The notes under the pieces were generated by a model. The model searched no databases and was not told the origin of the DNA. It worked only from the letters and a program-made list of their open reading frames with translations. A program made the translations under genes and the position numbers. From assembly GCA_963742415.1 (NCBI GenBank), contig CAVULX010000003.1, positions 704,001 through 768,000 of the forward strand: a stretch of DNA of 64,000 nucleotides, written 5' to 3'. This DNA comes from an uncultured Parachlamydiaceae bacterium. Its GTDB lineage: Bacteria; Chlamydiota; Chlamydiia; Chlamydiales; Parachlamydiaceae. Below, one piece after another: positions 21,456-61,670 of the stretch (within the stretch, counting starts at the first letter, position 1; each line of letters starts with the position of its first letter).

Positions 21456-21456
21456 T

Positions 21457-21798
21457 ATGTGCAAGTATTTAACCATTTTCTTAACAACATTGACTGTTTT
21501 ATTGTCTTTACTGAACCTCGATGGAAGTGACGCTATAATTGCAAGAGGCGGTGGAAGAGGCGGTGGCGGTGGAAGAGGCGGTGGGGGTGCAAGAGGTGTT
21601 GGGGGTGGTGTAGGAAGAGCTCCGGTCGCCAGGGGGGCAATTCAAAGAACTCCTACCATGAGTAGAGCCGGGGCTGCTGTTGCCGGAGCTGCCGTTGCAA
21701 GATCTCGCACATCCGATTACTATCCGACAACGCCTTATTATAATACCTCATTGCCAGATTACACTCTCTATCCTCAAACGGGATATCCACCGTATTAA
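21457..21798 (+). CDS. Small secreted Gly/Arg-rich (RGG) protein with Tyr/Pro tail
   Basis: Signal peptide, ARGGGRGGGGGRGGGG and RTPTMSR. Starts 1 nt after the upstream stop, with an AGGAGG RBS. Confidence 0.65.
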   Translation: MCKYLTIFLTTLTVLLSLLNLDGSDAIIARGGGRGGGGGRGGGGARGVGGGVGRAPVARGAIQRTPTMSRAGAAVAGAAVARSRTSDYYPTTPYYNTSLPDYTLYPQTGYPPY

Positions 21799-22097: not shown

Positions 22098-25000
22098 TTA
22101 TAGATCGCAAAAGAAGAATTGTGCCGGAACTTCCCAACAGGGCAGCAGAATAGGTACACACCAATGCACATCTTCTAAGAAGTCTGTCAGGAAGTAGTAA
22201 TCACTAGCCAGATTAAATTGTGAATCATAGACGCCAATGACCGCAAACACATGGGTCCCTTTTAATGGTTTAGGTGGCGGCGGCGGTGGTGGAGGAGGCG
22301 GAGGAGGAGGGGGCGGCGGAGGAGGTGGCGGGGGTGGAGGCGCTCCACAATCCTTGATCTTAACTCCATTGAAAAAAATCACGCATGGGGGATTCGGTGC
22401 ATAGGCATGGACAGTATTATCTATCGACGTACCGTTAAAGTCTGCTAAATCTACACCTCCCGCTATAATTTGTTGGGGTGTATTGACAAGGATCGGGCTG
22501 GAAAGACTTCCTACATTCCCATCGAGAGCGTTAAAGAAGGCAGTATTGGCAGAAACAACGTCGACAGGCCCACCCGCATTGAGGATTGAAGTTTGTGAAG
22601 TAAAGGAAGGGTTGACTAGATTCATCGGTCCGTTCAGTACAACGGACCCTGCGTTTACAGTAACCGTATTGATAGTGCCAACATTTGATAAAGTTCCCAA
22701 AAAGGCAAGACCTGATCCCGTATTAATTGTTATGTTTTCAAAGTTAGTGCCTTGTATCGTGTTGAATGAAAATTCCCCATTATTAGTCTCCACTAACAGG
22801 TCGGATCCACTATTAAGGTGTGTCACTGGGCTCGCAAAGGCGATAGATCCCCCATTAGTAAGAAGAGTCGTAAGTCCAGGATTGACGAAATCGGTGTCGG
22901 CTCCAGATGAATAAGTTTGCGTATGCGCAGCATAGATGGTATTCAAAAGAGAAATTGTATTGCTCGCCGTAAGACTAAGAGTTCCACTCATGATTACATT
23001 TGGAGATCCTATGCCATTTAAAGAAATATCGTGAGCTGAGGCGACTGTAAAATTCTGCAAAGGGATCGATGTCGAAAATGCAGTTGGGACATTAACATCG
23101 CCCATTCCCGCTGTGATAGAAATAGAATGGGTCCCTTCTAAGTCAGTTCCTAAAATGATATTTCCATTGCCTGAATTGAGGGTGAGATCCCCTGTCAGAG
23201 TAATCGGCCCTGAGAAACTAATATCATTTCCGCTAGTAGACAGATTACCGCCGATATTTGTAGTGCCAAGCCCCGTTTGAGTGAAAGGTCCGCTGAGTGC
23301 AAGCGTCAGATTGGGAAGGATAGTTAAGGAAGCCGAGTTCGTAATCGCGAATTTACCGCCGCCCGATGTTGTCACGTTGTCGTTGAGGGAAAATGAGGCA
23401 CCGCTGAGGGTGATGCCGGAAGCCCCTGTGGTGTTTAGAGCTCCATGGAAAGTTACGAGACCGGAAACACTTTCGATGTCGATCACGGAGGCGTTGATGG
23501 CATTGGATGTGAAAGCAGTGCATTCAAGGACTTGGAAAGTAGCAAGCGGGGTTGTTCCTCCCACATCACCTGTCAGAAGGATCGATCCTGAACCGGCATC
23601 GAGTACAAGATTATTCAATCCGTTGACCGTATTTGAAAGGATAATAGAGCTGCCTAAACCGTTGAGGTCAAAGAGAGAAGATCCAGTTAAAATGATAGGC
23701 CCGGTAAATAAAATTTGATTGCCTTGCACTTGAATAGTTGTATCAAGAGAAGTAGCCCCTTGGCCATTCTGACTAAAGTTTCCTGCTAAATTAATGGGAG
23801 CAGAGCTTAGAAGAGACAATGCGCCTGAGTTGTTTATCGAAAGAGAGCCGATACCTGTAGTTGTGACTAGGGCATCGAAGGTAAAGTCTGTGCCTGTGAG
23901 GTTTATGCCGCTTGGAAGAGTTGTCGTTAACGCTCCGTTGAAGGTTGTCATTCCATCGCCCGAATTTTGGATGATGAACCCAGCTGAGATAGCTTGAGTC
24001 GAAACATTGTTTGCTGTCGTAATAGTCAGTGATGATATCGGGGTCGTGCCTCCGATATTTGCCGCAAGGGTTAAATTTCCTGTACCGGCAGTATAAACTA
24101 GATCAAAGGGCCCATCAATTGTGTTAGAGATGAGAATATCACCTCCACCGTCACTATTCAGAGTTGTTGCACCCGTCAGGGTAATCGGATTGGCAAAAGA
24201 GATGTTCGCGTTGTTTGCGTGAATTGTGCCCGCAAGGTTGACTGTGCCGCCCGTTCCACTTTCTGTGAAAGGGCCTGCGATAAGAGTCGAGGTTCCTGCA
24301 TTTAACGATAATAATCCAGTATGAGTGATTGCACAGGGACCGCTATTTGTGGAAACAAGAGAACCTGTAAGGGCAAAGTTGGTACCGTTCATGTTGATGC
24401 CGGAAGAACCATTCGTATCGATATTCCCTAAAATCGTTGTGGTTCCGGAACCCACGTTCTGTGTGATAGAGGCTGCGGTAATATCAGAAGTTGCGATGTT
24501 GCTTGCTTGGGAAAAAGTGATAGCGCCAAGACGAGATGAGCCTCCAACCATGCCTTGAATACTAATAGAACCTGAGCCTGCATTGAATGTAATGTTTCCG
24601 GGTCCATCGAGAGTGCTTTCAAGGGTGATTGGGCTGGCAGCTGAAGTAAGTGATGCTGTTCCAGAAGCACTGACAGGCCCCGAAAGACTAATCGAGCTTG
24701 ATGAATTAAGCGAGCTGCTAAGAATAGAAGCTCCGGCTCCGTTCTGAGTAAATGCGCCGGAGGAGCTACAAGCATTGGAAAGGGTGAAAAGGCCCGAATT
24801 GGAGATCGCTATAGGGCCTGAAGCTATCGTCGTTACAGGTCCAGTAAATTCGAAATTGTTTCCCGCCAATGAAATGCCGCTTAAGGTACTGCTGTTGACC
24901 ATTCCGGCCAAAATCGTTGTACCTGATCCTCCGACTTGGGTGATTGAAGCCGCATTGATTGCAGCTAAAGTTGCATTATTCGTTTGTGTGATGGTCAAAG

Positions 25001-28000
25001 CATTTAAAGGAGCAAGAGATCCAATCGAAGCTGCAGTGGTAATATTGCCTGTACCGCTATTTAATGTGAGGTTTTGGGTGCCATCGACTAAACCATTGAA
25101 GGTGATATTTCCTGCACCGGATCCGCTATTCAATGTAGTTGCAGCTGCAAGAGTGATAGGGCCTGTGAACCCAATGGCTGCATTGCTTGTCAGCGCACTT
25201 CCCCCGATAGACACAGGGCCTATGCCTGTCTGATTAAACGGCCCTGCCGATTGAATTACTCCTGGAGCAATGGAAGTGAAAGTTCCGGTGTTGGCCACAG
25301 TAATGCCGCCAGTACCAGCCGCCGTCCATGCAGCATCTCGAATTATATCAGTTCCTGTAAGATTGATACCTAAAGAGCCGTTGGTCGTAATTGCACCGTT
25401 AAAAGTCGACGTATTAGAGCCGCTAATTTGGGTGACCGAAGAAGCGGTAATTGCTTGGGCCATGACATTTGCAGCTGAATTTATGGTGATATCTCCTAAA
25501 GGAGTCGTGCTTCCGAGAGGTGAACTCAGAATAATATCGCCAGTTCCGGCAGTGAAGTTAAGAGAGGAGCCTCCATTAACCGTCCCGGATAAAATGATAT
25601 CTCCGCTTCCGGCTCCTGTATCGAATCCTCCCCCGGCAAGGAGAGTAATGGGGCTTGTGAAGGAGATGTTGTGGTCATTGGTGGTGATCGTTCCGGCGAA
25701 AAAGACAGGACCTGTTCCATTTTGCGTATAGCTGCCGTCAATGGAAGTTGTGTTGATGGAAGTACCAGTAATGAACCCCGAATTGGTCACAGTAAAATTG
25801 CCTCCGCCCGTCGTGATTAAAGAGCCGCTTCGAATAAAGTTTACCCCTATCAGAGTAATCCCTGCAGAACCGCTTGAACTGAGATTTCCAACAATCTGCA
25901 TGGTTCCTGTGGCTGTTGCATTCAGGGAGTTGCAAGCAAAGTTCTGGATCGAAATATTTCCTGCGCTAGCCACTGTCGTTGAACCGAGCGGCGTAATTCC
26001 CCCCGCATTCGCTAAGAGAGTGATATTCCCGTTACCTGCTCTTAACGTCCAATTGCCCGCTCCATTTAAGGTGTTAGAAAAGGTGATCGCTTGATTGTTA
26101 CTCGAGGTGTCCATTAAACATGTGCCCGATAACACAACGGGACCTGCAAAGGAGATCCCCCCTTGGTTCGGTGTGACAGAACCTGAAAAATTCGTAGAAC
26201 CTGCGCCATTTTGAATAAACGATCCATCTGGGTTTGCAGTCCCGGCAAAAGTAAATAGGCCGCTATTGTGGACGGTAATGGAAGAACCCGTCGTTGTTTG
26301 AATCGAACCGCTATTTTGAACATTTAGGTTCGTTCCTGTGAACTGAAATCCGATATTATTCACAATAGATACAGCACCTGAAATTGTGGTTGTCCCAGAA
26401 CCTGCTGATTGAATTAACCCATTGACAGCCATATTCCCGATAGAAACATTTCTTGCACTCGAGATGGTTAAAAGGTTTGGACGCACCAGAAAATTACTTC
26501 CGACAGATCCCGAGAAGGTAATATCGCCCGTGCCTGCAGCAAGAGTGAGGTTTTGTGTGTCGGGCGAGGAGCCGTTAACGGTACTAGAAAACGTGATATT
26601 TCCTCCGGCACCCGTTGAAATGACAGAATTGGTGTTGAGCACAACAGATGAAGGGAATGTAAGAGGATTATTGATGGTGGCAATATTACCGCCCACATTG
26701 AGTGTCGAAGAGGGAGCTAGCGAAATCGAATTTGCAATTAGAGCGCCTCCTAGTGTTAAATTTGCACCTGACAAAGAAGCTGAGGCAAATTCTCTATCTG
26801 CAGCAAGACCAATGGCCCCCACTTGGATATTGCCGGATCCGCTAGAAAGGACCAGGTTCCGGCCGCTATTTTGGCCGGCTCGGATCGAAAGAGTAGTTAA
26901 AATGCCGCCAGCTGTATTGAGTGTTAAGTCTGTTCCTGTTCCGAGATTGACAGTTCCATTTTGGAAAGAGAGGTCAGCGCCATTTGAAGAGATCGTCGTC
27001 AAAGCGCCGCTATTCATATTAAATTGTGTGGGAGCATTATAAGTTTGAGCACCGGCATTGTAAGTGGTGCCATTGAATTGAATGGCGCCGCTGGCTGTTA
27101 TTAATGTATCTCCGGTGATACCCTGAGAGGCTCCGCCCATATTGGAAAGTGCAATCTGATTTCCAGTGATTGTCAAAGAAGAAAGGGGAGTGGAATTACC
27201 GATCGGTTGTGTGATCGAGACATTCCCCCCACCTGCCGTAATCGTGAAGGCGTGAGCTCCGTCGACAGTATTTGCGATTGATACGCCTCCTGTACCACCG
27301 CTGGAATCCAGGGCCACATCTCCTACTAACGTAAAGGGGCTAATGATCGTAAAGCCGCCGTTCGCAGAGATTACTCCTCCCAGGTTAACTGTACCTGTAC
27401 TACCGGGGAGCTGCTTCCACTGCCCATCAATATTAGATGTATTGCTCTGAGTTCCGGTTATAGCACCTGAATTGAGGAAAACTAGACTTCCTCCGTTTGT
27501 CGTTACCAAAGAACCCTGTCTAAAGAATTTGTTTCCTGTGAGACTAATACCTTCAGGACCATTTGTATCGAATGTACCGATCAATGAGAATTGGTTGGTC
27601 AAAACCTGTTGGGTGAAGGAACTAGCTTTCACAGTGGCAAAATTTGCATCATGAGCGCTAACGATTAAAACATCTCCTAGACGAATATTTGCTCCGATAT
27701 CTCCGGTAACATTAATGTCACCAGCGCCTGCTATCACGGTAAACGGAAATGCCCCATCAACGGTATTGGAAAGGGCTATATTTCCAGATCCAGCGCCGCT
27801 GTTCAAGGCTGCAGCTGCAGTGAGCGTAATAGGCCCTGTAAAAGAGAGATCTTGATTTGCTGTTTCAACCGTTCCGGCTAAAGATACAGCGCCGCTTCCA
27901 GTTTGACTAAAGGCACCCGTTGAAGAGAGAGTTTGACCTGAGAGTGTAAGGGTTCCTGTGTTGGCAATCGAAAGTGGGCCTGCCGATGTGGCGCTCCCAA

Positions 28001-31000
28001 TAAGAGTAAAGGCAGTTCCTGTCAGGTTAATGCCGCTGAGACCATTGGCGGTAAGATTGCCATTGAATGTGCTAAGGCTGGAACCCAAGGTTTGCGTAAT
28101 GGAGCCAGCTTTAATGTCTTTAGTAGAAACAGCTCCTGCGCTATTGATGGTGAATGCTGTCAGGCTTGTGCCAACCCCAATATCAGATGAAAAGGTGAGG
28201 TTTCCTGTTCCAAGTGTGCAGGTGAGAGAACCAGGACCGTCGACAGTATTCAAAAACTGGATGGAACTGTTATTGGAAGATGAATCTATTGTCGCTATTC
28301 CTGAAGCAACGACGGAAATAGGCCCCTGGAAAGAAACCGAGTTCCCGGTTGCAAGTGAACCCTGGAGGGATACAGCGCCTGCTCCATTTTGGATAAAAGC
28401 GCCGGCAATATGAAGATTTGCAGATGGACCAAAGGCTAATGTGCCTGAGTTCGTAACATTCATCCCTGCTCCGGTACTCATAGAAGTCGTTGTCACCGAG
28501 CCGTTGACTACAAAACTGATGCCAGTCAAACTGATACCGGCGACACCATTGGTATTGATGTTACCAGCAAAGGTCGTTGAGTCGCTCCCTAATTGAGAGA
28601 TCGCTGCGGCGGTAACATCTCCAGTAGTGACATTTTCAGCAGAGTTGATCGTCAGCGTCCCAATTCGAGTTCCTCCTCCGACGGCGCTGCCGAATGTAAT
28701 GTTTCCTTCACCTGTAGTAAGGTTCAAATCATTTGCACCATCAACAGTGCCTGTGAAACTGATACTTCCTGAGCCACTACCTGTATTCAACGTTGTAGCT
28801 CCCGTCAAGGTGATAGCACCGCCAAAAGAAATATCATCATTCGATGTTGAGATCGATCCGCTTAAAGAGGCTGCTCCACCACTTTGGATAAAGCTTCCAT
28901 CAGCTTGTATCGATGCTCCTTGAGTCCAAGTGCCGGCATTTGCAATGGCAATTGGCCCTTCACTCGAAGTGGTGAGGGAGCCATTTTGCACTATCGTTGT
29001 CCCCGTCAATGAGATGCCGTTGGAACCGGAGGCGTTCATAGGTCCCGAAATGAGAGTCGTGCCAGAACTTTCCTGTTGTTCGATAGAAGCAGCAGAGACA
29101 CCTTGATAGGTAATGTTTGCTGCATTTTGCACGGTAAATGAATTTAAGGAATCTTGGTCGCCCACGTTGTCTAAAAATAAAAGATCTCCTGTTCCCGCAA
29201 TCAAGTTGAGGTTGTGAACTCCATTGATCTCGCCGTTAAACGTGAGGTTACCGGCTCCCGAGCTATTTGATATCACTGTTGTCCCCGCTAAATCCACAGG
29301 GCTAGCAATCGAGATCGCTCCCCCTGTCGTGAGAAGAGTGCCCGAAAGAGCCACGCTGCCGCTGCCGCTTTGGGTAAATGATCCAGAAATCGAGGAGCTT
29401 GGTCCACCTGTAAGGGTCAGTTGGCCGCCATTAGAAATCGAGACCGCTCCCCCCGACGTAGTAACAAGATTTCCGTTGATCGAGAATGTGATGCCTGTAA
29501 GAGAAATGCCCCCTGCAAGGCTCGTATTTAGAGAACCGAGAGCCGTGGTTCCTGAACCTGCTGACTGTGTAATCGTTGCTGCTGTGATGTTTTGAATCGT
29601 CACATTCTGGGCATTATCAATCGTGAAGTCGCCTATTTCAGTAATTCCCCCAATATTTCCAGCTATGAGTAGATCTCCAACTGTGCCTAAATTGAGTTCC
29701 AAAGAGCTTGAGCCATCGATTGTGCTGGAGAAAGTGATATTCGTCGAGTTAGCGGAAGTATCAAGAACTGCCAGATTGGCGAGGGTTGCCGCCCCAGCAA
29801 AAGAGATATTCCCATTTGCTGTGATGCTACCACCCAGCGTTACCGCCCCATTGCCCGACTGACTGAATGCACCATCCACGGAAAGTGAAGCTGCACCTCC
29901 TAATGCTAATGTTCCAGTATTGGTGATTGCAATAGGACCTGATGCAGTTGTTACCATGCTATTGTTCACTGCAAACGCATTGCCTGTAAGTTTAATTCCG
30001 CTCACAGAATTAACATCAATCGCACCATCAAAGGTCGTCGTGCCAGTTCCGGCAACTTGTGTCAAGGAAGCAGCACTAACAGCCCCTGTGGCGACATCAC
30101 CCGCACTTTCTATGGTGATATTACCGACCCTTGCCACGCCTCCAATGCTACCTGAGAAAGTAACATCTCCAATTCCGGCGGTTAAATCGAGATCGTAAGG
30201 TTGATCCAGTGTATTCAAAAATGTTATATCTGCTCCTGTTAAGCTCACAGTGTTGATCGCTAAGTCACTACTCAAATCAACAGCTCCAGCAAAAGAAACA
30301 ACATCATCGGTCGTTTGAATATTTCCGCCAATCGACACACTTCCTGCGCCAGTTTGCTGGAAGGCTCCATCAAGATTGAAGACTGCCCCGTTTCCCGTAA
30401 AAGTGCCGGAATTATTGAAAATGGCTGGAGCTTCATTTGTGGTGAGTGTAGATCCCGCGACCGAAATATTGTTTGTCTCGATATTGATTCCTCCCGCAAT
30501 GGCTTCGATTCCAGCAGAGATTGTCGTCGTGCCAGCACCATTCGTTTGTGACAAAGAACCCACAGTCATTTCCTGGCTGATGATTACATCTTGACCCGTC
30601 CCGATAGAAAGTGAAGTCAGAGGAACAGAATTACCAACCAACCCATTAAATGTTAATGAGTTTCCAGTCCCTGGATTGATTGTTACATTGCGGCTTCCTA
30701 CTCCGTCTCCATTGACAATGTTGTTGAATATAAAGCTTCCTCCTGAAAAGACAATATTATCTGCGGTGATCACAACAGGAGAGTTGTAAGTTAGGGGGCC
30801 AAGCTGATCTGTGCTTATAAAAGTAATCGTTGGAGACTGAAAGACAGGGGCTGTTGTTGAAAAAATGGGATCTGGGTGGTTGATGGTGCCGCCGGTGATC
30901 GTCACACTATTAACATCATTCCCCGAGGTTCCGATCTGAGCCACCGTCACAGTTCCCAAAATAGCGTCGAGAGTGATATTCTGCCCGGGCCCTGTAAGAT

Positions 31001-34000
31001 TTGTCAAAGTAATATTACCATTATTGCTATCGACCGTAAAATCAGTACCCGTGCTCAAAGCAATTGTCCCTGTGTTAAATGCAATCGCACCGCCACCCGA
31101 TGTAATAGTAGTCGGAGCTCCTGATGTGTAATTGAAGTTGAAGCCTGCCGTATAGTTTTGGGCGCCTCCTGTATAAGTAGTTCCTGTAAAATTAATAGCA
31201 TCGGTCGCACTGATTGTAAGATTTCCAGTAGAAGCGGAAGGGGAGGTACCGAAATTAGCAAGCGTCACGTCTTGGCCGCTGATCGAAAAAGTTGTCAAAG
31301 GGATAATTCCTCCGATCGTACCACCTAAAGTCACACTTCCCGACCCGGCTGACAGAGTCAGATTTCTTCCTGAAATATCCCCATTAATTGTTCCTGTGAT
31401 GGAAATATCCCCGCTACCGCTCCCGCTGCTCAAAGTGATATTGTTCGTCGTTGTTCTGGTGACATTACCTGTGATCGTGATATCGCTATTAGTCGTTGTA
31501 ATGTTTCCGCCCAGGTTCACTGCACCTGTCAAAGCAACTGCAGAAGAGGTTGTAATTGCCGCCGGTTGGATGATAGAGCTGGCTGTAGCCGAGAGGCAGT
31601 TAAGGGGGGTGGTACCTCCGAGCTGATTCAAAAATTGAATGGTTCCTGTCCCTGCAGTTAAAGTTAAGCAATAGGGGCCATCAACTGTATTGGAGAAGAG
31701 GATGTTACCAATACTTGCTCCAGTATCCATCACTACGTCGTGGGTCAGTGTAATAGGATCTGCCCAGCTTACATTGTCATTTGTCGTGGTGACATCTGCA
31801 CCTAATGAAACGAGGCCACCTCCAGATTCTGTGAATGGGCCATCGATTGAAATTGCTGAACCAAAAGGAACCGTTAGAGTACCTGAGTGAACAATCGAAA
31901 GCGGCCCGCTGTTCGTTGTCGTCACAGTAGAGTCAAATGCAACTTGATTAGCAGAAATTGAAATCCCTGTTCCTCCCGTCGTAGATAAAGCCCCGCCAAA
32001 TATCGCAAGGCCGCTCATATTCGATCCCGCAATCGAGGCAGCGCTGATTGCCCCAGTCGTGACGTTATTTGCACTGGTGATTGAAACGATGTTAAGAGGA
32101 GTCGAATTACCTAGATTGCCATTAAACTGAATGTTTCCTCCTCCTGCATTGAGATTAAGGTTCTGGGCACCATCCACCGTACTGGATAAAACGATGTTGC
32201 CATTAGCTTGACTGCTATCCAAAGTTGCGGCTCCAATAAGATTAAGAGGCGTATTAAACGTTATCCCTCCAGCTGTAGCAGTTACAGTCCCTTGGAAATT
32301 TAATATCCCCACACCCAAATTAGTCACATTGACAGAGCCCGCGGTTAAAGGGCCTCCTGGAGAGCCTACTGTGACATTGCCTGTGAATGCAGCATTGAAT
32401 GGACCCCCATTAGTTGCGTTGATCGTCCCTGACCTAAAAACGTTATTAACGGTTAATGTTATCCCAGCAGGCGCATTCGTATCGAGATTGCCATTGAATG
32501 AGACTGTTCCCCCGTTTCGGTGATATTAACCGATGCTGCAGTGAGAGACTGCACCGACATGTCCGTGCAACTGTTAATCGTAAAGGCCCCAACCCTCGTC
32601 GCTCCACCAATAGCCGATGAAGCTGTAATACTTCCCGTCCCCGCAGTGAAAGTTAATGTTTGATTACCAGCTGTAGTTGCATCGACAGTATTAGAGAAGG
32701 CAATATTTCCATTGCCTGAATTCAAGCTAAGGTTGCCGCTCAATGTGATCGGACCTGCAAAAGAGATTCCAGTGGCCGCTATGGAATTGCCTATGCTTAT
32801 AGGAGCCACACCTGTTTGGGTGAAAGCACCAGACAGAGAAAATGTAGTGCCATTTGCGACGGTTAAAGGATTAGCACCTGTCATGGCAATCGTTAAAGGA
32901 CCGCCCCCGGTTGTGGTCACATTAGAGTTCATTGTAACTTCATTGGCGGAAATGGAGATCCCAGATCCTCCGGATGTATTTAAAATACCGCCAAAGGTCG
33001 CTTGGCCAATAATTCCTGACGCGGAAAACGAGGCAGAGCTGATCGCACTAGTTGTGAGGTTATTTGCGCCTGTAACAGAAATGTTATTAAGAGGAGTTGT
33101 ATTGCCCAGGCTTGCGTTAAAGCCAATATTTCCTGCCCCTGCATTAAGGTTAAGATTCTGATTGCCATCAATCGTACCATTAAAAACAATATTGCCTCCT
33201 GACTGACTACTATCAATAATAGCAGTTCCAAGCAAATTAAGATTTGCATTGAAAGTAACCCCTCCTGAAGTAGCTATGACAGTGCCTCCCGCATTCAACG
33301 GCCCGCTACTCGTTAATGTTACAGACCCTGCAATAATGGGACTTGGGCTTCCTCCTGAAATGGTTCCTGTAAAAATTCCTATTAAGGGGCTTCCATTCGA
33401 TGCAGTGATTCCTCCTCCCCGGATGAAATTATTGGCATTGATAATAATTCCTGCGGATCCATTGGTGTTGAGATCTCCAACCAGATGAACCGTTCCCCCT
33501 GTTTCAGTTATATTGACAGATGCGGCTGTGAGGGCCTGCACCGTCATATTGGTGCAGCTATTGATTGTAAACGCTCCGATTCTCGTGATTCCTCCAATGG
33601 CTGCAGATGCTGTGATGCTTCCTGTGCCAGCTGTCAGGGTCAAATTTTGAGCCCCAGCTGAAGTGGCATCCACTGTGTTGGAGAAAACAATATTCCCATT
33701 GCCCGAGTTTAAGTTTAGATTTGCACTCATTGTGATTGGACCTGCAAAAGAGATGCCATTGCCAGTTATGACACCACCGATATTTACAGGACCTGTGCCC
33801 GTTTGGCTATAGGAACCACTAATCGTCGCGCCCAGAGTCGAAGCAGTCAAGAAACCGCTGTTGTCCACTACAAGTGGTCCGCCGTTTGTAGTGACGACCG
33901 ATCCATTGCGAACAAAATTCGTCCCGGTTTTATTAATGCCGCCTGCAGCATTTGTGTTTAAATTTCCATTGAATGTGGAGGTGCCGCTGCCGGCTGTTTG

Positions 34001-37000
34001 GGTAATGGTTGCTGCAGTGATAGCTTGAGCCGTTAGATTACTTACGCTATTTATGGAAAAATTACCCAGCCGTGTTGCCCCCCGACTGCTCCGCTGAGTG
34101 TGATTGACCCAGTTCCCGCGGCCAGTGTCAAATCCCCACCTCCATCAATTGTGGAACCGAACGAGAGGTTTTGGTTGTTGGCAGCTGTCGAGACGCTGGC
34201 GCTACCCGTTATGGTCACGGGGCTTAAGAACTGAGCAGCGCCGCCAATGATCATTGCATTAGACAATACGGCTGAGCCGTTTTGGGAAAAGGCTCCGGCA
34301 ATATTTGAAGTAGAGGAGGACGAATAAGTTGAGGTTCCCGAACTCAAGACACTTAAGGGGCCTGCTGCAGTTGTAGAAATCGCGCCATCAAAAGCGAAGG
34401 TGGTGCCTGTGAGCGAAATACCTCCTGCCGTATTGGTGTTCAATGCACCAAAAGTGCTTGTTCCGGACCCTTGCGATTGGGTTATTGTCGAGGCAAAGAT
34501 CGATTGTGTTGTAATGTTATCTTGTGCTTATAAACGTCAAATTCCCGATGTAAGACCCTGCCGATCCAATATCTCCATTAAGGGTAATGCTTCCGGCATT
34601 GCCATCCAACGTCAAGTTATAAGGACCCTGTACACTTTGACTTAGCGTAATGCTGTCCGTTCCTATCCCAGTATCGAGTAACAAGTCTCCCGCCATTGTG
34701 ATTGGACTTGCAAAGGAAAGATTACCCCCATTGGCAACCACTGAACCGCCGATTGTTACATTCCCTGAACCCGTCTGAGCGAATGCGCCCCCCAACGTAA
34801 TATTCCCTGGTGCTGTACTTGTGAAAAGGCCGCTATTGTTTATCGTCAAACTGCCTGTATTTGAAGTAGTAATTGCAGCATTTCTAACCACAGCACTGGT
34901 AGAAATAGCTATTCCAGCTGTGCCTGTAGTTGTCACTGCCCCTTGAAATGTGGTTGTCCCCGTTCCACCTGTTTGTGTGAACGAGGCTGCGTGAATATCC
35001 TGAGTTGTTACAATATTGGCATTGACAATCGTGATTGCGCCGAGAGCTGTTGCAGCGCCAGCACTTTGGTTGAAAAATACATTTCCACCATTCGAGTTGA
35101 ATGTGACAGCAAAAGGACCATCAATGGTCCCGTTCAGTGTCACCGTACCCCCGCTAAGGGTATTTGCCGTAATAGGAGCTACAAGAGAGATGTTATGGGC
35201 CGTGCTGATATTGCCCGTATGACTTGTAAAAGACCCGCCTAAAAATCCGATCCCTGTGCTCGATTGGGTGATCGATCCCCAAACGTTGGTCGGACCTATC
35301 GGAGAACCGGAGGATGTACCTGTCGTTGATATGTTATAAGGCCCATCACCAGGCGATGATCCTGTTGTTGTGACCGAGCCATTGTTCACAAGATTCGCAC
35401 CGGTGAGTGTGATTCCTAATGGCCCGTTCGTATTGAGAGCCCCATTAAATGTAAAAGTACCAACGGTCCAATTAAAATTGAGCGATCCAGCATTGATGGC
35501 TTGCGTCGTAATGTTGGTAGCCGAATTAATTACAAAATCTCCAAGCCGTGTCGTTCCACCCACAGCTGCAGAGAGGGTAATATTTCCTATTCCTGCAGAG
35601 AGCGTTAAATCATTTCCTCCGTCAATAGTGCCGGAGAAAATAATCGGATCTCCTGCTGCTGCCGTTGAAATCGACGTATCCCCGGCCAAATTCACTGGAC
35701 TTGCAAAGGAAATGGTATTACCCGCGGTGATGCTATTGCTCAGGCTGACTGTTCCGCTCCCTGATTGAGTCAAAGCGTCGCTTAAAGAGAACGTTGCTCC
35801 TGATCCCATTGTAACTAGGCCGCTATTAGCTAAAACAAAGGACCCCGAATTCGCTGTAGTGACATTACTATTAAAGGTAAAAGCTGTTCCAGTGAGGTTG
35901 ATTCCCAAAACACTAGACGTTGCAAGAGGTCCATTGAAGGTTGTCGTCCCCGTCCCTGCTGATTGGACTAAACTCGCAACGTTTATCGCAGCGGATGCTG
36001 TGACATTATTTACATTTGAGATTGTCAGAATATTGAGTGGATGGGTCGATCCAACGGCACCTGAAAAAGTAAGATTGCCAGAGCCTGACGCCAATGTGAG
36101 GTTTCTTATATTGTCCAGATCACCGTCGAGAGTACTGTTAAACGTAATTGCTCCTCCCGCGGTTGCCAAGATCGATCCGGATGCTCCATTCCTCACAACG
36201 GCGACAGGGAACACCAAATCATTGTTTGCCACTGTAATGTTGGCACCGAGAAATATCGTCCCGGTCGAGGTGAAGCTCACTGCATTCGACACGATATTGT
36301 TAGGGATAGAAATATCACCTGCAGTAAGGGACAAAGAGGCAAACTCGCCGCTGCTAACTGTGCCGATAGAAGAAAGAGTAAGGGGGCCTGTGCCTGCATT
36401 GATAGTTACATTGCGCAAATTCCCTGTGAGGGCATCGAGTGGAGAGAGGATAATCGCACCTCCTCCTGAATTAATCGTAAGATCAGTACCCGCACTCAGA
36501 GATATCGCAGATGTGGAAAAAGTGATAGGAGTGGCCGTACTGGTCAGAGTTGTCAGCCCCCCTGCGCTGAAATTTACTGCAGGAGCAATATAGCTTTGCG
36601 TATTGTAATTATAAGTCGTTCCTATCAAGTTAATAGAAGAGGTTGAGGTCAAATTAGCTGAACCAGTAATGCCAATAGAAGACCCTCCGATATTGTCAAG
36701 GGTTATTGTGCTTGCAGTAGCGTTTAAGGAATTCAGCGCGGTAGTTCCTCCAAGAGTCCCACCGAAAGTGATGCTGCCAGTGCCCGAATTTACGTTAAAC
36801 GTGTGAGCTCCGTCAATTGTACCATTAACAGAGATATTGCCTCCCGACTGACTGCTGTCAACAGTCGCATTGGCAAGCAAATGAAGATTAGCGTTATAGG
36901 TAATTCCTCCTGTAGTTGCAATGACTGTGCCGCCGGCATTAAGCGTACCAGAGCTTGTCAAGGTAATAGACCCGGCCGTAATGGGGTTAGGACTCCCTCC

Positions 37001-40000
37001 AGAAATTGTTCCCGTGAAATTCCCTATTAGAGGGCCGCCATTAGACGCGGTAATTCCTCCTGCCCGGACAAAGTTGTTGGCATTGATGGTGATCCCTGCA
37101 ATGCCATTGGTACTGACATCTCCAGCGAATGTAACTGTTCCCCCTATTTCGGTGATATTAACGGACGATGCGGTGAGAGCCTGTATTGTCATGTTGGCGC
37201 AGCTGTTGACAGTCAAAGCCCCGATGTTGGTCGTCCCTCCAATTGCTGCTGAGGCAGTGATATTTCCAGTGCCAGCCGTAAGGGTTAAATTTTGCGTTCC
37301 AGCTGTTGTAGCATCGACGGTATTGGCAAAACTGATATTTCCATTATTTGAATTCAGCGATAAATTTCCGTTCAAAGTTAGTGGGCCAGCAAAAGAGATG
37401 CCTGCCGCTGTCAATGCACCGCTAGTATACACAGGGCCTGCACCTATTTGACTATAAGAGCCACTTACTGTACCTCCAGAGGTTGATGAGACAATAAGGC
37501 TACCGCTGTTGTTCACGACAAGTGGACCACCATTTGTCGTGTTCAGCGTTCCATTTCTTACAAAATTCGTTCCCGTTAAACTAATGCCTCCTATAGCATT
37601 GGTGTCCAAATTCTGGAATGTTGAAATGCCGCTGCCAGCTGTTTGGGTGATGGTTGCCGCAGTGATATTTGCAGCTGTTAAATTACCAACGCTGCTAATG
37701 GTTACATTGCCAAGCCTTGTCGTGCCTCCTAAAGGGTTCGTAAACGTGATATTTCCCGACCCTGCCACAACAGTTAAATCGTTACCCCCATTAATTGGAT
37801 AGTTAAAGACTATATTGCCATTAGCAGCACTTGAATCAAAAATCGATGGGCCAATTAGATTCAATACGGAATCATATGTAATGCCTCCTGTATCAGTAAG
37901 CAGAGTGCCCTGGAAATTCAAAACTCCAGTACCCAAATTTGTCGTGTGTAAAGACCCTACCGCAATTGGAAGTGAGCTTCCCCCAGTGATCGTGCCTGTA
38001 AAGGTTGTAATTAAAGGACCTCCATTGGTCGCTGTAATGGCGCCGCCGCGGAAGAAATTTGTGATGTTGAGTAAGATACCTGCTGAGTTATTCGTATTAA
38101 TGTTGCCACTGGACGTTACTGTTCCTCCTGTTTCTGTAATGGAGATAGAACCGGCAGTAATGTCGGCCGTGGTCATATTGGTGCAACTATTGACCGTCAA
38201 TGCGCCGATCCTGGTTATCCCCCCGATGGCTGCAGAAGTCGTGATATTTCCCATTCCTGCCGTGAAAGTTAGCGCTTGGGCTCCCGCTGAAGTTGCATCT
38301 ACAGTGTTGGCAATATTGATATTTCCATTTTCTGAATTCAAGTTAAGGTCTGAGCTCATTGTGACAGGGCCTGCAAACGAAATGCCCGCAGCCGTTATTG
38401 TTCCTCCGATATTTACTGTACCCAGCCCTGTTTGACTAAAGGGGCCGCTAATTGTAGTGCCTGCACCTGAAACAACAGTCAAAGTACCGCTGTTGTTCAC
38501 TGTAAGCGGCCCGCCATTTGTCGCAACAGCGGATCCATTGCGAACGAAATTCGTTCCAGTTGTATTGATGCCTCCTATGGCATTTGTATTTAGATTCTGA
38601 AATGTAGATGTTCCACTCCCGGCTGTTTGGGTAATTGTCGCTGCAGTGATGTTTCCAGCATTTAAATTGGCAACGTTTTGGATTGTCAAATTCCCCAAAC
38701 GAGTGACACCTCCGACAGCTCCTGTAATGATAATATTACCTGTCCCTGCATTCAAACTAAGACCACCAGGCCCATCTACAGTGCTTGAGAATAAAATGTT
38801 TCCGGTGCCGCTCCCGCTATTAAGTACTGTATTATTGATTGCAACAAATACACCGCCAAATTGAATTTGATTGTTTGCTGTTGTAATCGATCCCGAAGAT
38901 TGAGTCATCCCGATACCAGATTGAGTAAAAGGTCCCCCAAGGGACAATGCACCACTGGCACCTATCCGGAAAGTTCCTGCTACCGAAATCGTCGCAGGAC
39001 CGCTGAGAGCGGTTGATAGAGTGTTGTTTACTGTCAGATTATTCCCCGTGAAGAGAAATCCCGAAGCAGCGGATAATGCTACTGCACCATTTAAGGTGGT
39101 CGTCCCGATTCCAGCTGTTTGGTTAAACGAAAGAGCTGAGATACCTGCAGCAGTGACATTATTGGCATTGGAGATTGTCAAGGCTCCGATAGGAGTTATC
39201 TGACCGATATTTCCCGAACAGACTATATTGGACAACCCCGAAGACAAGGTTAAGTTCTGGGCTCCGTTAATTAAGTTGGAGAAGGTGATGTTTCCACCGG
39301 CGGGGGTTCCTCCACCATTAGTTGAGTCGGCAATAACCGCTGCAGTCAAAGAAACTGGACCTGTCATTTGAATAGCCCCGCCGCTTGTCGTCAAATTGCC
39401 GCCGAGATTAATTGCTGATGTTCCTGTGTAATTGATTGCGCCCACTGTGGTCGCAGTTGAACCCTGGACAACTGTAGCGCCACTCGCAGTTAGCGACGAA
39501 AGCGTTACAGTTCCTCCTACAGCAGCTGTTAATGTAATGGTTCCGTTGTTTCCACCCGTTAACGTAAGGGTGTTTGCTCCATTCAGCGTGCTGGAAGCTG
39601 TTATGTTCGCACCAGCAGGAGTGCCTCCACCGTTAGTCGTATCGGCAACTATGTTATTCATTAAAGTGACGGGACCTGTCCAGTTGATGGCTCCTCCACT
39701 TGTCGTCAAATTACCGCCCAAACTCACTGCTGTTCCATTATAACTAATCCCTCCCGTCGTCTGAACGGAAGAGTTTTGTACAATCGTATTGCCAATACAG
39801 CTAAGTGCTGTAAGCGGCGCCGTTCCGCCAACAGCTCCTGATAAAGTCACTGCACCAGTGCCTGTCAAAGTGAGTGCATTGGCACCATTCACTGTGCTCG
39901 AAAAAGAAAGGTTGGAGCCTGTTGCAACCACGCTCCCCGTCAGAGATACTGGACCTGTCATCGAAATTGGGCTTCCACTCGTCGTTAAGGCACCGCCTAA

Positions 40001-43000
40001 GCTAATCCCGCTCGTGCCAGTGTAACTAATTGCACCCGTCGTATTCACTGTAGAACCTTGTGTCACAGTAGAGCCGCTAGCAGTGATCGATGTAAGTGGT
40101 GTTGTCCCCCCAACCGCACCCGCCAATGTGACACTGCTTCCCGTAAGATTTAAAGCTTGAGCCCCATTCACACTATTCGAAAAGACGATAGGAGCTCCGG
40201 TTGTTGAAACGGTATTGATGATAAAATCACTAGTCAAAGAAACAGGACCTGCAAAAGAAACTAAGGCATCGGTCGTAAGGATGTTCCCTCCGATAAGCGA
40301 AACGGCGCCCGAACCTGTTTGTTGGAAAGGTCCGCTTAAAGTATAGCCTGTTCCAGTCGAAGTAAAAGTGCCTGAATTATTGATAACAAGAGCTCCGCCC
40401 CCTCCCGTCGAAATATTACCTGCCATGCTGACACTACCATCAGTGATGTTGATACCTCCAGATCCTGTAGTCGAAAATCCACCAGCAACGGTTGTTGTTC
40501 CAGACCCGCCGGTTTGTGTGAAAGAGCCTAAATTCACCCCGCTATTAAACGTCACATTTTGCGCCGTTCCAATAGTCAGAGAGGTCAACGCAGCTGAATT
40601 GCCAACCAATCCAATAAAGCTAGCTGAATTGCCAGCTCCCGGATTTATCGTAAGATTGCGGCTGTTGCTTGTTGCATCTGAGTTAAGAGTGCTATCAAAG
40701 GTAAATGACCCCCCGGAAAAAACGAGGTTATCGGCACCGATGATGACCGGAGAACCATAGACAATAGGTCCGATTTGATTGGTGGTGATTGTGAGGATCG
40801 TGGGGGAATTGAATACCGGTGGTGTGTTAGAAAAAATGGGATCTGGGTGGTTGATTACATTTCCAGTTGCTGTAATGCTCTGCACGTTATTACCTAAAGT
40901 ACCGATCTGGGCCAAATTTACGGTTCCAGTAGATGCATTTAGAGTGATGTTCCGATTCACACCAGTCAAATTGGTCAGTGTGATATTCCCCCCGTTGCTA
41001 TTTACAGTAAAGTCTGTGCCTGAACTTAGAGAAATAGTTCCTGTGACAAAAGTAATTGGAAGGCCTCCTGACGTCATCGTCATAGGAGCGCCAGCAGTGA
41101 AATTAAAATTTGTACCTGCTGTATATGTTTGGTTTCCGTCTGAAATCACTGTCCCTGTAAAGTTGATAGCTCCAGTCGAGGTAACGGATGTGATCCCAGT
41201 GGAAAAGGCAGCTCCCGTGCCCCGGTTGGCTAAATTGATCGTAGCGCCGCTGGCGGTAAAATTATTAAATGGAACGACCCCTCCCATCGTCCCTGCCAAA
41301 GTCACTGTTCCAGTTCCGGAGGTGAGTGTGAGGTTTCTTCCCGAAACATCTCCGTCAATCGTTCCGGTAATCAAAATATTCCCCGCACCAGACCCAGTTG
41401 AGAGAGCCGCATTATTCGTATTTGTCTGAGTGGCGTTGCCATTTAACGTAATATTTTTGCCGACGGTCGTAATATTGCCGCCAAGAGAGATCGGACCAGT
41501 AAGAGAGACTGCATTGGTAGTAGAAATCGAGCCTAGTTGAACAATAGAAATTCCTGATGCTGTCAATGAACTCAAGGGGGTCGTACCGCCAATTGCTCCG
41601 GCCAGAGTTACTATTCCGCTGCCTGTCAGAGTTAATGCATGGCCTCCATCAATACTGTTAGAGAAGGTGAGATTCGAACCCGTCTCCACCACATCACCTG
41701 TTAGAACAACAGGTCCAGTCAATCCAATCGTACTGCTTGCCGTCGTTAGATTGCCGCCCAAATTGATCGAGGTGGGTGCATTATAACTTATTGCGGCGGT
41801 TGTGGTAACTGCTGCACTCTGCGTCATCGATGCACCTGTTGCACTCAATGATGTAAGCGGTGTCGTTCCCCCAACAATTCCTGACAATGTTATAGCGCCG
41901 TTTGTGCCGCCGATTAAGGTTAGCGCTTGAGCGCCGTTAACAGTGGATGAGAAATTAATGTTTGCTCCTGTAGTTGTTGCACCTCCATTAGTGGCATCAA
42001 CAGTCAGATTCGTTCCCAAAGTGACAGGTCCGGTCATCCCGATGGCACCACCACTCGTTGTCAAATTGCCCCCTAAGTTAATGGCACCGGTATAATTAAT
42101 TGCCCCCGAGGTTTGAACAGCTGTATTTTGCGCAATCGTAGCGCCAGAAGCGGTCAATGAATTGAGAGGCGTTGTGCCTCCCACCGCCCCCGACAAGGTC
42201 ACAATGCCGCTGCCATTAAGTATCAACGCTTGTGCTCCGTTCACCGTATTTGAAAGAGAGATGTTCGATCCTGTTGCAACAACACCCCCTATTAACGAAA
42301 CTGGTCCCGTCAAGCCAATCGCACTGCCGCTGGTGGTTAAATTTCCCCCCAAGTTGATTGCCGTCGGAGCTGTATAGCTTATGGCTCCTGACGTAGCTGC
42401 ACTCGAGTTCTGTGTAATGATTGCGCCAGTTGTGGTCAGAGTGGTTAAAGGAGTTCCGCTTCCAATAGCTCCAAACATGGTCACTGTCCCTGCCGTGCCC
42501 CCGTTCAAAATTAACGCTTGCCCATTATCAATCGTACCGGAGAAGGTGATGTTTGATCCGGAAGAGAATCCGCCACCATTTGTTGTATCTACTGTCACCC
42601 CCGCAGTAAGAGACACAGGACCGGTCATTCCAATCGTTCCGCCGCTCGTCGTCACGTTACCGCCTAACCCTACCGCGCCTGTATAACTGATAGCTCCTGT
42701 TGTTTGGGACGGTAGATGTCTGTGTTATGGCAGATCCGCTGGCCGTGAAGCTTGCAAGCGGACTTACCCCCCCGATCGCTCCCGTAAATGTGATTATGCC
42801 ACCGGTACCCCCATTCAAGATAAGTCCTTGAGCGCCATCGATCGTATTCGAAAAAGAAATGCTCGCTCCTCCAGGTGCCGAGTGTGTTGTATCTGCCGTT
42901 ATCCCGTTTGTCAACAGCACAGGGCCGGTCATTCCGATCGTTCCGCCACTCGTCGTCAAATTACCATTCAAACTAATCGAAGTTCCGTTATAGCTAATTG

Positions 43001-46000
43001 CTCCAGTTGTTGCTGCTGTCGATCCCTGAGTAATCGCAGTGCCTGCCACATTTAAGGTGGATAGAGGAGTTGCTCCACCAACAGCTCCTGTCAATGTCAC
43101 GGCACCAGTGCCATTCAACGTTAGAGCTTGCGCACCATCAACTGTATTTGAAAACGAAAGGGTCGAACCGGTTGCCGCCACAGGGCCTGTCAAAAACACG
43201 GGACCTATCAGCGATATAGGACTGCTTGTTGTAGTAAGAGCACCACCAAGATTGATAATGTTTGGCGCTGTGTATCCTATTGCCCCTGTCGTCACGACGC
43301 TCGACCCCTGCGCAATCGTGAAACCTGTGGCCGTAAGGGAGCTCAAGGGCAATACCCCACCCACAGTTCCATTGAGAGTCACAGTCCCACTTGTTCCTCC
43401 TATTAAATTCAGCGAATTGGAGCCGCTGCCATTGATCACGCCTGAAAATGAGATGGAGGCACCAGCAGGTATGGTGTTGCTATTAGTTGTATCGAAAACT
43501 GTATTTGTATTTAGCGTGATAGGGCCTGTCATTCCAATGGAGCCGCCATTAGTCGTCAAGTTTCCATTCAAATTGATAGTCGTACCGTTATAACTTATGG
43601 CTCCTATTGCATTAGCTGTTGATCCTTGAGTAATTGTCGTGCCGTTGACGGTCAGTGAGCTCAAAGGGGTCGACGATCCAACTGCCCCTGTCATCGTGAC
43701 TGTACCACTGCCTGCTAAAGTCAGAGCATTACCACCATCAATCGTACTGGAAAATAAAAGGCTCGAACCACTTGCTATCACACTCCCTGTCACAGCGACA
43801 GGGCCTGTCATTCCAATACTCCCTCCCGCGGTCGTTGTCAATGAGCCACCTAAACTAATCCCTGTTCCGGTGTAATTGATCGCACCACTCGTTGTTGCAG
43901 CTGAACTCTGTGTTATCGTAGCACCGGTTGCAGTTAGTGAGCTTAAAGGTGAAATGCCGCCTATATTTCCCGTCAGTGTTACGGTTCCACCAGACCCTCC
44001 CATCAATATCAGAGATTGAGGATTATCAATTGTGTTCGAGAAGATAATATTTGCCCCTGAGGGTATTCCACCGCTATTTGTCGTATCGACTGTCACAGCC
44101 GATCCCAAAGTAACAGGGCCAGTCATTCCGACGGCCGCACCAGTTGTCGTTAAGTTGCCGGCTAAACTAATTCCGGTAGATCCCGCGTAGTTGATAGCCC
44201 CTGTTGTGGCTACAGCTGCACCTTGGGTGATCGAAAGTCCACTCGCAGTCAAAGAGGTCAGCGGCACGGCTCCTCCAACAACGCCCGATAGTGTCACGGC
44301 TCCACCGGAACCACCGGTTATAGTGAGTGTTTGAGGCCCATTGATAGTGCCCAAAAAATTGATATTTGCACCGGCAGCTGAAGCGCCTCCATTTGTACTA
44401 TCCATCGTCAAATTGGTACCTAAAGCCGCTGGACCAGTCATCCCAATTGCGCCGCCGTTAGTCGTCACATTGCCATTCAGATTAATTGCTGTGCCGTTAT
44501 AGTTAATCGCGCCTGTGGATTTGGCCGTCGAACTTTGTGTAATCGTAGTTCCACTGACAGTGAGCGAAGTTAGCGCCGTCGTCCCTCCAATTGCCCCTGT
44601 CATTGTCACCGTACCGCTGCCTGTCAAAGCTAACGGATGGGCCCCATTAACCGTGCTGGAAAGTAATAAATTAGAACCTGCCTGTACAACAGCCCCAGTC
44701 AAAGTGATGGGACCGGTCATTGATATTGGACTAGCAGTCGTCGTCTGATTGCCTGCAAGTTTAATTGAAGAGCCGGTATAACTAATTGCACCGGTAGTTG
44801 TCACAGAAGCACTTTGTGTGATCGTCGTGTTATTTGTAACTAACAGTGAGCTTAGAGGCGTCGTGCCTCCTACAACCCCTGTCAATGTTACTGTTCCCCC
44901 AGTACCTCCCTTGAGAACTAAAGGAGAACTACCATCGACGCTGCTTGAGAAAGTGATATTCGCACCCGATGCAGAAATACCGCCATTTGTCGTATCTGCT
45001 GTTACAGCGCCAGAGAGTATGACAGGGCCTGTCATCCCCATCGTTGCGCCGCTCGTCGTCAGGTTGTTCCCCAGATTGATTGTTGTACCATTATAACTAA
45101 TAGCTCCCGAGGTAATAACTGGGGAGCTTTGCGTGATCGCCCCGCCAGTTACAGTAAGGGAAGTGACTGGTGTTAAACTACCTATTGCCCCCGACATTGT
45201 CACAGGGCCACTTGTTCCACCTGTCAATGTCAGTGTTTTGCCACCATCGATCGTACTCGAAAAAGAGATTCCAGCACCGGCAGGTGTAGCTCCTCCGTTG
45301 GTCGCATCAGCTGTTATGTTCGCACCTAGCGTGATAGGGCCGGTCATACCAATGGTGCCGCCACTCGTTGTCAGTTTTCCGTTTAAACTAATGGCCGTTC
45401 CATTATAACTAATTGCACCGGTTGTCTTCACAGTTGAACTTTGTGTGATAGAAGTACCACTCACATTCAATGATGACAAAGCAGTCGTTGCACCAACAGC
45501 CCCTGACAAAGACACTGCTCCACTGCCATTTAGAGTAAGTGCTTGTGCACCGTTCACTGTACTCGAAAACGACAGAGTCGATCCAGTTGCCACTACAGGA
45601 GCTGTCAAAGATACAGCGCCCGACATCGATATCGGATTCGCTGTCGTTGTAAGGGCCCCACCCAAATTAATCAGAGTTTTCGGGGTATAATTGATCCCCC
45701 CTGTCGCAACTGCGGAGGAGCTTTGCGTAATCGTCGCTCCCGTTACAGTGAGAGAACTCAATGGGGTTATGCCGCCAACGGCACCTGACATTGTCACGTT
45801 GCCGCCCGTACCGCCTGTTAGTGTCAAAGCCTGTCCACCATCTAGTGTACTCGAAAAACCTATCGAAGCACCTGCGACAGAACCTCCAGCATTGGTGGAG
45901 TCCACGACCACTCCACCAGAAAGAGCTGTTGGCCCTGTAATTGTAATGGCAGCGCCGCTCGTCGTTATATTTCCACCGAGGTTGATCGCTGTCGATCCGG

Positions 46001-51358: not shown

Positions 51359-51647
51359 TCTATCGCCGCTACCGCGGCTTTATATTTATTTGGCGATTAC
51401 CCCACGTTCCAGCCTGCGCTTCGCGCATGGCTTTCACGCGGGGCTCCCCACTCACCTCCCTTCCGGGAGGTTTTGACATTTACCGTAGAGTTATAAAAAT
51501 ATTCTTATTTGAATTGGATAAAGAACCTGCTGGAACCTCCCGGAAGGGAGGTGAGTGGGGAGCCCCGCGTGAAAGCCATGCGCGAAGCGCAGGCTGGAAC
51601 GTGGGGTAATCGCCAAATAAATACAAAGCCGCGGCAGCGGCGATAGA
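51359..51647. repeat. Long inverted repeat: two 114-bp arms (112/114 identical) around a 61-bp AT-rich spacer
   Basis: 51359-51472 is the reverse complement of 51534-51647, with mismatches only at 51371 and 51382. Confidence 0.95.
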
Positions 51648-53393: not shown

Positions 53394-53609
53394 CTTTAAA
53401 AAATGCAAATTCAATCCCCTCACCGATACCTTCTAATAGTGAATAATCTTGTCTTTGACAAAATTGAAATGAAACCTTCAGAGTTCGAAACAAGCATTCT
53501 TTATTAAATTTAAAATATTTGCTAGCAGAAAAGCATTTGAATGGAATATTGGTAAAAAGGCAAACGTAAAGACACTATATCGAACGTAAGTAAAACGTAG
53601 ATAAAAAAA

Positions 53610-61247: not shown

Positions 61248-61670
61248 ATGGAAAATGATCTGTTTTGCTCGTTACAAAATTGGTATCTTGCTCAGTGCGA
61301 TGGAGATTGGGAACATGAATATGGAATTAAAATTGAAACAGTCGACAATTCTGGGTGGTATATATCTATAAATTTAATAGGAACTGATTGCGACAATCAT
61401 CCTTTTTCACCCATCCAAATGGAAATAGATGAAATGAATTGGTACTTTTGTTTGGTGCGAAATAATAATTTTGAAGGATCATGTGGACCATGTAATCTTG
61501 CTGAAATTTTACAAATTTTTCGCAAATGGGCTGAAAGCTGCCAAAAAGAGGGGTGTCTTAAGAAAAGATTCGATTTGATAAGGGCGATCCAATGGAACAG
61601 GGACATGGTGCAAATGACCATTATCATAAATACAACCCAAATTCAACAGGAAAACATGATAAATATTTAG
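61248..61670 (+). CDS. Immunity protein Imm53 family (C-terminus reads into following fragment)
   Basis: LQNWYLAQCDGDWEHEYGIKIETVDNSGW...INL and FEGSCGPCNL..ILQIF match the Imm53 pattern. Confidence 0.8.
   Translation: MENDLFCSLQNWYLAQCDGDWEHEYGIKIETVDNSGWYISINLIGTDCDNHPFSPIQMEIDEMNWYFCLVRNNNFEGSCGPCNLAEILQIFRKWAESCQKEGCLKKRFDLIRAIQWNRDMVQMTIIINTTQIQQENMINI

Follow-up and report, generated by a model that had tools for sequence, protein, structure and literature searches.

What is the function of a C-terminal tail that combines a cysteine pair, a long run of consecutive prolines and an end rich in cysteines and aromatics in a giant exoprotein (TpsA) of a two-partner secretion (TPS) system? 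The question is raised by an uncultured Parachlamydiaceae bacterium whose tpsA lies in a 64,000-nucleotide stretch of contig CAVULX010000003.1. This whole stretch is the window to which coordinates refer; tpsA, tpsB and all their parts lie on its minus strand. A preliminary description of the sequence had proposed that the tail is either a rigid periplasmic tether, with the cysteine pair as a disulfide anchor, or a tip that engages the host cytoskeleton.

A giant tpsA and its partner gene

The whole tpsA covers 29,115 nt (~9,700 codons; 22098..51212) in five frames (51212-42657, 42655-34517, 34443-34051, 33868-32459 and 32327-22098), each continuing the previous one; relatives carry frames that are open over 9,966 and 10,804 aa. 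The four frame changes, near 42,700, 34,520, 34,080 and 32,500, do not interrupt the repeats, which carry on across them. Given that the essential genes rpoB, rpoC and gyrB are likewise split into many frames (C4:459927-467899 and C4:940561-943034), the breaks in tpsA are probably assembly indels, and split genes elsewhere in this indel-rich assembly should probably also be treated as errors. The frame changes and the error-prone assembly could instead be taken as signs of a decaying pseudogene, its long proline run and Cys-rich end being drift or assembly noise, but we consider this very improbable: the equally broken essential genes point to assembly error, the conserved motif described below is in frame after the run, and runs of 22 and 15 prolines are found in other genomes (loci L043 and L013). 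Several other stop-free frames of 3,000–3,900 codons are present elsewhere in this genome.

The first frame has a signal-peptide-like N-terminus followed by the TPS secretion domain PF05860 (50397..51089; residues 42-272 of the frame, E 2.3e-29). The five frames are preceded by tpsB (51705..53423), which encodes a POTRA_2 domain and a ShlB/FhaC barrel (PF08479, PF03865) and belongs to the TpsB clade found together with this tail. The TPS domain, the adjacent TpsB with POTRA and barrel, and the beta-helical fold of the last 240 aa identify the locus as a type Vb system. The genome holds one TPS domain and one such tail, and a search of it for a second paralogue found none. The last frame (3,409 aa; 22098..32327), with beta-helical repeats, cap, linker and motif, had been called a TpsA; it is the last part of a giant tpsA, but the ORF itself has no TPS domain, PF05860 being in the first frame only.

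Around these genes, a long inverted repeat separates tpsB from tpsA (51359-51647). The convergent neighbours (20562-21798, plus strand), a SnoaL/DUF4440 protein and a 113-aa Gly/Arg-rich, secreted-looking protein, are not common to related loci. Elsewhere in the window, an RHS-repeat protein with a distinct C-terminal tip (58285-60942) is followed by a small ORF (61248-61670), presumably resembling an immunity protein. A terminator scan below tpsA gave 2 sites against 1.0 expected, none convincing. Across 27 loci, no downstream gene was common to the loci beyond two pairs and one tpsB, and the next gene is mostly convergent. A CdiA-type contact-dependent toxin was rejected, the tail being a short motif and the 27 loci having no common downstream (immunity) gene.

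Reading the last frame confirmed the features reported at the outset, namely the Cys pair (ORF residues 3315 and 3327), the 23 prolines with mixed codons and the Cys/aromatic tail. The run consists of exactly 23 prolines (ORF residues 3330-3352; window 22340 to 22272) inside a linker that is 33 aa long in this copy (22346-22248), and 57 further residues follow it, including distal cysteines 3390, 3397 and 3407. Its codons are CCT (9), CCG (7), CCA (5) and CCC (2), so that CCC is under-used (2/23, against ~30% genome-wide). A six-frame scan of the 2.69-Mb genome detected three runs of at least seven prolines, and the studied one alone lies in a long frame. Since the other two, of 8 and 10 prolines, sit in frames of 54 and 51 aa, the 23-proline run is not a chance occurrence.

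The tail belongs to a chlamydial family

The 160 residues before the run match 30 of 400 genomes of the order, and when 1.84 billion cluster representatives were searched with a profile of 30 tails, 237 clusters passed E 0.001. All homologue counts given as fractions of 150 refer to the best 150 of these 237 clusters, which include P0121, a cyanobacterial CHAT protein matched by its repeats only. Homologues are chlamydial-type where titled: among 27 titled loci, those that name a group belong to chlamydial MAGs, except three labelled Verrucomicrobia, which would make the studied bacterium an environmental chlamydia. A TPS-like N-terminus is present in 72 of the 104 homologues of at least 600 aa.

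No Pfam family came near its cut-off on the 30 tails, a PDB sequence search with the tail profile returned 0 matches at E 1, and the best ESM Atlas score, 0.78, is a chance-level lead. The cluster look-up of 10 homologues yielded only 'hypothetical' or 'filamentous hemagglutinin family protein'. In the literature covered, which was largely open-access and judged from titles and the starts of abstracts, we found no description of chlamydial TpsA tails. At the level of sequence, the tail of these chlamydial TpsAs is a C-terminal module without annotation, and its most striking part, the proline run, is the least conserved.

Three elements recur in the family: a beta-helix cap, a variable linker and an aromatic motif. 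The cap has the consensus N-P-P-C-x-I-x-F-N-G-x-x-I-x-D-C (with tail residues numbered 1-240 starting at window 22820, P145 is kept in 137/150 and N151 in 140/150). The linker ranges from 2 to 62 residues, with a median of 17. The motif, F-[AY]-V-P-G-[FIV]-x-S-S-x-F-N-L-A-S-D-[FY]-[YF]-F, often followed by P-[LIM]-[YF]-[YW], corresponds here to F192-L215 (22176..22247); L204 is conserved in 132/150, F210 in 110/150 and G196 in 100/150, and the median number of motif aromatics is 7. L204 lies at most 60 residues from the C-terminus in 125/150, and many tails stop within ~30 residues (median 29), with no bulky periplasmic stopper. The motif is retained where cysteines and prolines are lost. The initial reading of a Cys/aromatic tail was correct in that such a tail is present, but it overlooked this family-conserved motif. 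The distal 25 residues with three cysteines (22098..22175) are not conserved, and these cysteines are private to this copy; as regards conservation, then, cap and motif are family features, while the proline run and the distal cysteines are not.

Several variants of this organization were observed. A mostly short, Cys-free subgroup, forming one clade of 23 rows, has an acidic linker and the variant motif S-L-x-P-D-L-F; its loci L023, L024, L026, L027 and L031 encode TpsAs of ~680-780 aa. Five homologues (P0020, P0061, P0072, P0089 and P0115) carry acidic or low-complexity extensions of 150-300 residues after the motif, which would be periplasmic if the motif plugs the TpsB pore. Genome G394 has 15 TpsB-like matches, on one contig of G227 several tpsA genes with such a tail stand in tandem, and G210 has a tpsA-tpsB-tpsA tandem.

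The TpsB clade was detected in 37/401 genomes and the cap/tail in 31/400, with 29 in common (the tail search gave 33 matches, two of them to repeat turns only, and one genome was unscored). The eight genomes with TpsB only are assemblies of 40-250 contigs. A second, phylum-level draw gave 26/251 in the tail/TpsB survey. Such co-occurrence is expected of any tpsAB pair.

The cysteine pair in the beta-helix cap

In the AlphaFold2 model of the last 240 aa, residues 1-160 form a beta-helix closed by a hairpin, with pLDDT >87 per block. The final beta-helix turns (residues 1-142; 22395..22820) reach 87-98 per block, and the cap hairpin N143-C158 (22347..22394) has its strands at 147-150 and 153-157 and its cysteines, Cys146 and Cys158, at 22385-22383 and 22349-22347. 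In the fold comparison, the FHA secretion domain 1rwr came first (Z 12.3, rmsd 2.6, 147 aligned), followed by EtpA (Z 10.3) and HMW1 (Z 10.0); a Foldseek search against the PDB gave no match at E 0.001. Structure prediction, proposed in the preliminary description, thus divides the C-terminus in two, with the cap folding on the beta-helix and the post-run tail adopting no firm fold: the 57 post-run residues have pLDDT 39-60 and the motif 48-60. In a short-linker homologue (81 aligned sequences), the motif reaches 66-73, within a range of 48-73 across that homologue's tail. These models suggest that the motif, which would have no firm fold alone even with a short linker, needs a partner.

Of the best 150 homologues, 89 combine a Cys158-like residue with Cys146 and 18 combine it with Cys139, so that 107/150 have a pair; in 5 it is alone, and 38 have neither it nor a partner. 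No homologue has both Cys139 and Cys146, and neither occurs without Cys158. All Cys139 forms fall into one clade of the cap tree. We accordingly discarded the idea that the Cys139/146 switch represents many independent events, and it counts once. A single compensatory swap of Cys139 and Cys146 with Cys158 kept is what a structural disulfide predicts, and the pair looks like such a disulfide, stapling the folded cap.

For HMW1, the tether is reported to be the pair Cys1518-Cys1528, within the last 20 residues (PMC3983070), and CdrA is described as held by a cysteine hook (PMC7616799, PMC13405001). A classical hook of this kind, whose disulfide loop would be too large to pass the pore and would leave the C-terminus in the periplasm and make the prolines a periplasmic tether, thus has precedent, and both the pair in 107/150 homologues and the three cysteines in the last 20 residues of this copy, two of them 10 apart, are in keeping with it. 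We nonetheless regard it as quite unlikely here. The conserved pair sits in a cap modelled with confidence, 82 residues short of the end; the swap within one clade is that expected of a three-dimensional staple; and the 38/150 homologues without the pair keep the cap and a related motif, while 135/150 have no cysteine in their first 40 distal residues. The chlamydial pair, which comes before the linker, next to the helix, and which a quarter of the family does without, is not the terminal Cys loop that characterizes HMW1 and CdrA. As the pair appears to act as a cap staple and is absent in 38/150, it is probably not the family's anchor, contrary to what had been proposed. The distal cysteines of this copy may form a private periplasmic loop. 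A frameshift as the source of the distal tail was also considered and rejected, the native reading scoring 49.3 bits and the best shifted one 49.4, with no gain.

A variable proline run

The longest linker proline run is 0-2 residues in 118 of the best 150 homologues and at least six in only 9, with a maximum of 11. The two genome loci with 22 and 15 prolines (L043 and L013) use mixed codons, with one CCC each; histidine-rich stretches directly follow the long runs in both. In the nearest relative, whose cap is 75% identical, proline runs are two residues long at most. A quick tree of the cap region, built from 137 rows after removal of those shorter than 120 residues, requires 8 changes to account for the 9 long-run rows; at least four of these changes are forced by well-supported branches, and the rows cluster no more than shuffled ones do (79/500). 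Since long runs are rare and arose repeatedly, and the nearest relative has a run of only two prolines, the run is, as judged from these sequences, a repeatedly lengthening spacer, tolerated or favoured, and not a conserved binding site. The mixed codons had been read as selection on the protein and not slippage; they do exclude expansion of a single pure triplet, and CCC is under-used, but with repeated independent expansions the length itself is not shown to be required. A scaling of run length with filament length was rejected as a subgroup effect, the correlation (rho 0.51 in 71 proteins) falling to -0.01 in 46 Cys-bearing ones.

BimA, Sca2, RickA and ActA are polyproline surface proteins of actin-based motility, and 23 prolines could bind profilin if exposed to the cytosol. 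These proteins resemble the studied one in having a long proline run on the surface of an intracellular bacterium, but here no WH2 or actin module was found, the run is not conserved, and it probably lies at the filament base. Pfam scans detected no actin-binding family, WH2 included, although short motifs can escape such scans, and the conserved long polyproline expected of an actin nucleator or profilin recruiter is not what the family has. More generally, the TPS end could remain at the pore, with the cap distal and the linker displaying the motif toward a host protein. The intracellular life of chlamydiae and the order of a proline-rich stretch before a conserved extreme C-terminus, as in the PRR-CT of FhaB, would fit such an arrangement, which is still unlikely given that the motif is modelled in TpsB, that the tail has no domain fold comparable to the compact ~100-aa CT, that one motif is common to at least seven families, and that runs of at least six prolines are confined to 9/150 and have several origins. 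Its profilin/actin form is far less probable still. The host-cytoskeleton-engaging tip first envisaged is thus not borne out, with long runs so rare, a run of only two prolines in the closest relative and no actin-binding family found.

A model of the motif in the TpsB lumen

We modelled the mature TpsB of the studied copy (window 53327-51708; 540 aa, 26 rows) with tail residues 178-240 (60 rows). The ipSAE of three runs was 0.76, 0.65 and 0.00 (median 0.65), against 0.00 for the best of 3 controls, which were whole unrelated proteins, with no scrambled motif and no non-cognate TpsB among them. The ipSAE mark is reached by 116/157 solved complexes and 2/215 mismatched pairs, counts that are only rough, our own alignments having been used. 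Agreement between runs covered only at least 4% of contacts, with partner pLDDT of 48, 46 and 26.

The confident interface comprises tail residues 192-215 of the 63 residues offered and coincides with the stretch already conserved in the alignment, making the motif a predicted TpsB-lumen plug. The TpsB contacts alternate along strands (236/238/240, 250/252/254, 269-277 and 313-319) and include loop 6, that is, they face the lumen. Residue numbers set against the usual TpsB topology suggest that 192-204 would lie at the outer mouth and 205-212 would descend toward the beta1/beta16 seam, a direction in which the linker and the filament would be outside the pore and the last residues on its inner side.

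In the TpsB clade, conservation is higher at contact positions than in the rest of the barrel (0.74 vs 0.59), and outgroup TpsBs, which align at ~25% identity and lack the clade's H1, show the same trend (0.69 vs 0.47). Ten contacts picked post hoc (V240, F250, L271, F275, I291, I319, 403, Y424, 436 and L440) are hydrophobic at 9-10/10 in all 26 clade TpsBs, compared with 0-4/10 in 20 distant chlamydial TpsBs. In CdiB and FhaC, the position of I291 is taken by T, S or Q, as read by eye. Among inward positions of strands 1-7, with the register set by eye, a polar-to-hydrophobic switch affects 6/24 contacts and 1/9 non-contacts, without clear enrichment. In place of DxxG, each of the 26 clade TpsBs has NxxG (mature residue 207 here), and the position of this Asn is in the modelled interface. 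The TpsBs of the Cys-free subgroup (L075, L076, L080 and L089) differ at predicted contacts 203, 205, 534 and 536, but they also differ widely elsewhere.

Helix H1 is reported to sit inside the lumen of TpsB, close to loop 6 and to the DxxG of beta1, and in solved CdiB it fills that lumen (PMC7644211). For this reason, and because the outgroup lacks this clade's H1, the hydrophobic patch may serve H1. The model score may likewise arise from likeness to H1 in the solved CdiB/FhaC lumen. Cys89 of POTRA1 is invariant in the 26 clade TpsBs and has no conserved partner cysteine, though this copy has Cys32 in the linker; a linker-POTRA1 disulfide is described for CdiB (PMC7644211).

The modelled contact and the conservation of the motif would equally fit a transient engagement, in which the motif pauses or terminates export for folding of the helix and the protein is then released. 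The low partner pLDDT, the weak agreement between runs and the many tails that end ~30 residues on (median 29), with no bulky periplasmic stopper, are compatible with such a pause. It is nevertheless unlikely in our view, given that a multi-aromatic motif would be expected to fit stably against a conserved hydrophobic patch and that no processing protease is found in the flanks examined.

A proposed pore-plug anchor and its relation to known systems

Considering gene anatomy and conservation together with the modelled cap fold and motif-TpsB contact, we slightly favour a C-terminal anchor comparable in role to those of HMW1 and CdrA, formed by a peptide plug and not by a cysteine hook, with the polyproline as an external spacer. 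The tail would then be the cell-anchoring module of chlamydial two-partner-secreted beta-helical filaments. TpsA would be exported N-terminus first and fold outside; the cap, often stapled by the putative disulfide, would end the beta-helix; and the motif would dock on the hydrophobic patch in the TpsB lumen, so that export stops, permanently on our reading, with the last 25 residues on the periplasmic side. In the topology we infer, the prolines would be a stiff external spacer, of freely varying length, between the pore and the filament base. Polyproline extends 3.1 A per residue, which gives ~7 nm for 23 prolines. Of the rigid periplasmic tether first suggested, the anchor thus survives, assigned to a motif modelled in the TpsB barrel, whereas the prolines are probably outside and not periplasmic.

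The closest parallels are HMW1/HMW1B and HxuA of Haemophilus influenzae and CdrA/CdrB of Pseudomonas aeruginosa, which are also type Vb pairs with a Cys pair near the C-terminus. In all of them, the C-terminus is proposed to lie in or under the TpsB pore with the N-terminus distal, an arrangement that here comes from the model. Their anchor is a disulfide loop, whereas what the chlamydial proteins conserve is an aromatic motif, placed in the lumen by the model. Bordetella FhaB shares the FHA-like beta-helix and, in order only, a proline-rich stretch before a conserved extreme C-terminus. The CT of FhaB, behind its proline-rich region, is reported to bind microtubules (PMC13232309, PMC4542190). 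FhaB has a C-terminal moiety of ~1,240 residues with a folded CT of ~100 residues; unlike it, the chlamydial tail has no compact domain, its helix reaches to ~100 residues from the end and its linker is short (median 17 aa). The H1 helix of FhaC and CdiB is similar in being a short segment in the TpsB lumen, but it belongs to TpsB and plugs the resting pore, while the chlamydial plug would come from the substrate. In the sources consulted, which for the comparison with HMW1, CdrA and FhaB also include PMC5422565 and PMC4694147, TpsA retention is documented as disulfide loops (HMW1, HxuA and CdrA) and as the FhaB/CdiA hairpin. A PDB search with the TpsB profile returned transporter chains only.

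It is conceivable, if somewhat short of an even chance, that environmental chlamydiae have a dedicated TPS subfamily, in which a hydrophobic TpsB lumen pocket locks the C-terminal motif of the substrate independently of cysteines, and this plug, together with a disulfide-stapled cap and a polyproline stand-off of variable length, holds beta-helical filaments of 600 to 10,800 residues, presumably adhesins, on the cell. By FHA geometry, a filament could extend up to roughly 250 nm. The polyproline itself would be of little importance. Several family members would rank among the largest surface proteins predicted for chlamydiae, and its short members (630-1,200 aa) make the proposal testable. If the motif does lock into the TpsB lumen, it would represent another mechanism of TpsA retention, and the plugged TpsB would be a natural stalled intermediate for determining the structure of a TpsB with its substrate in the pore.
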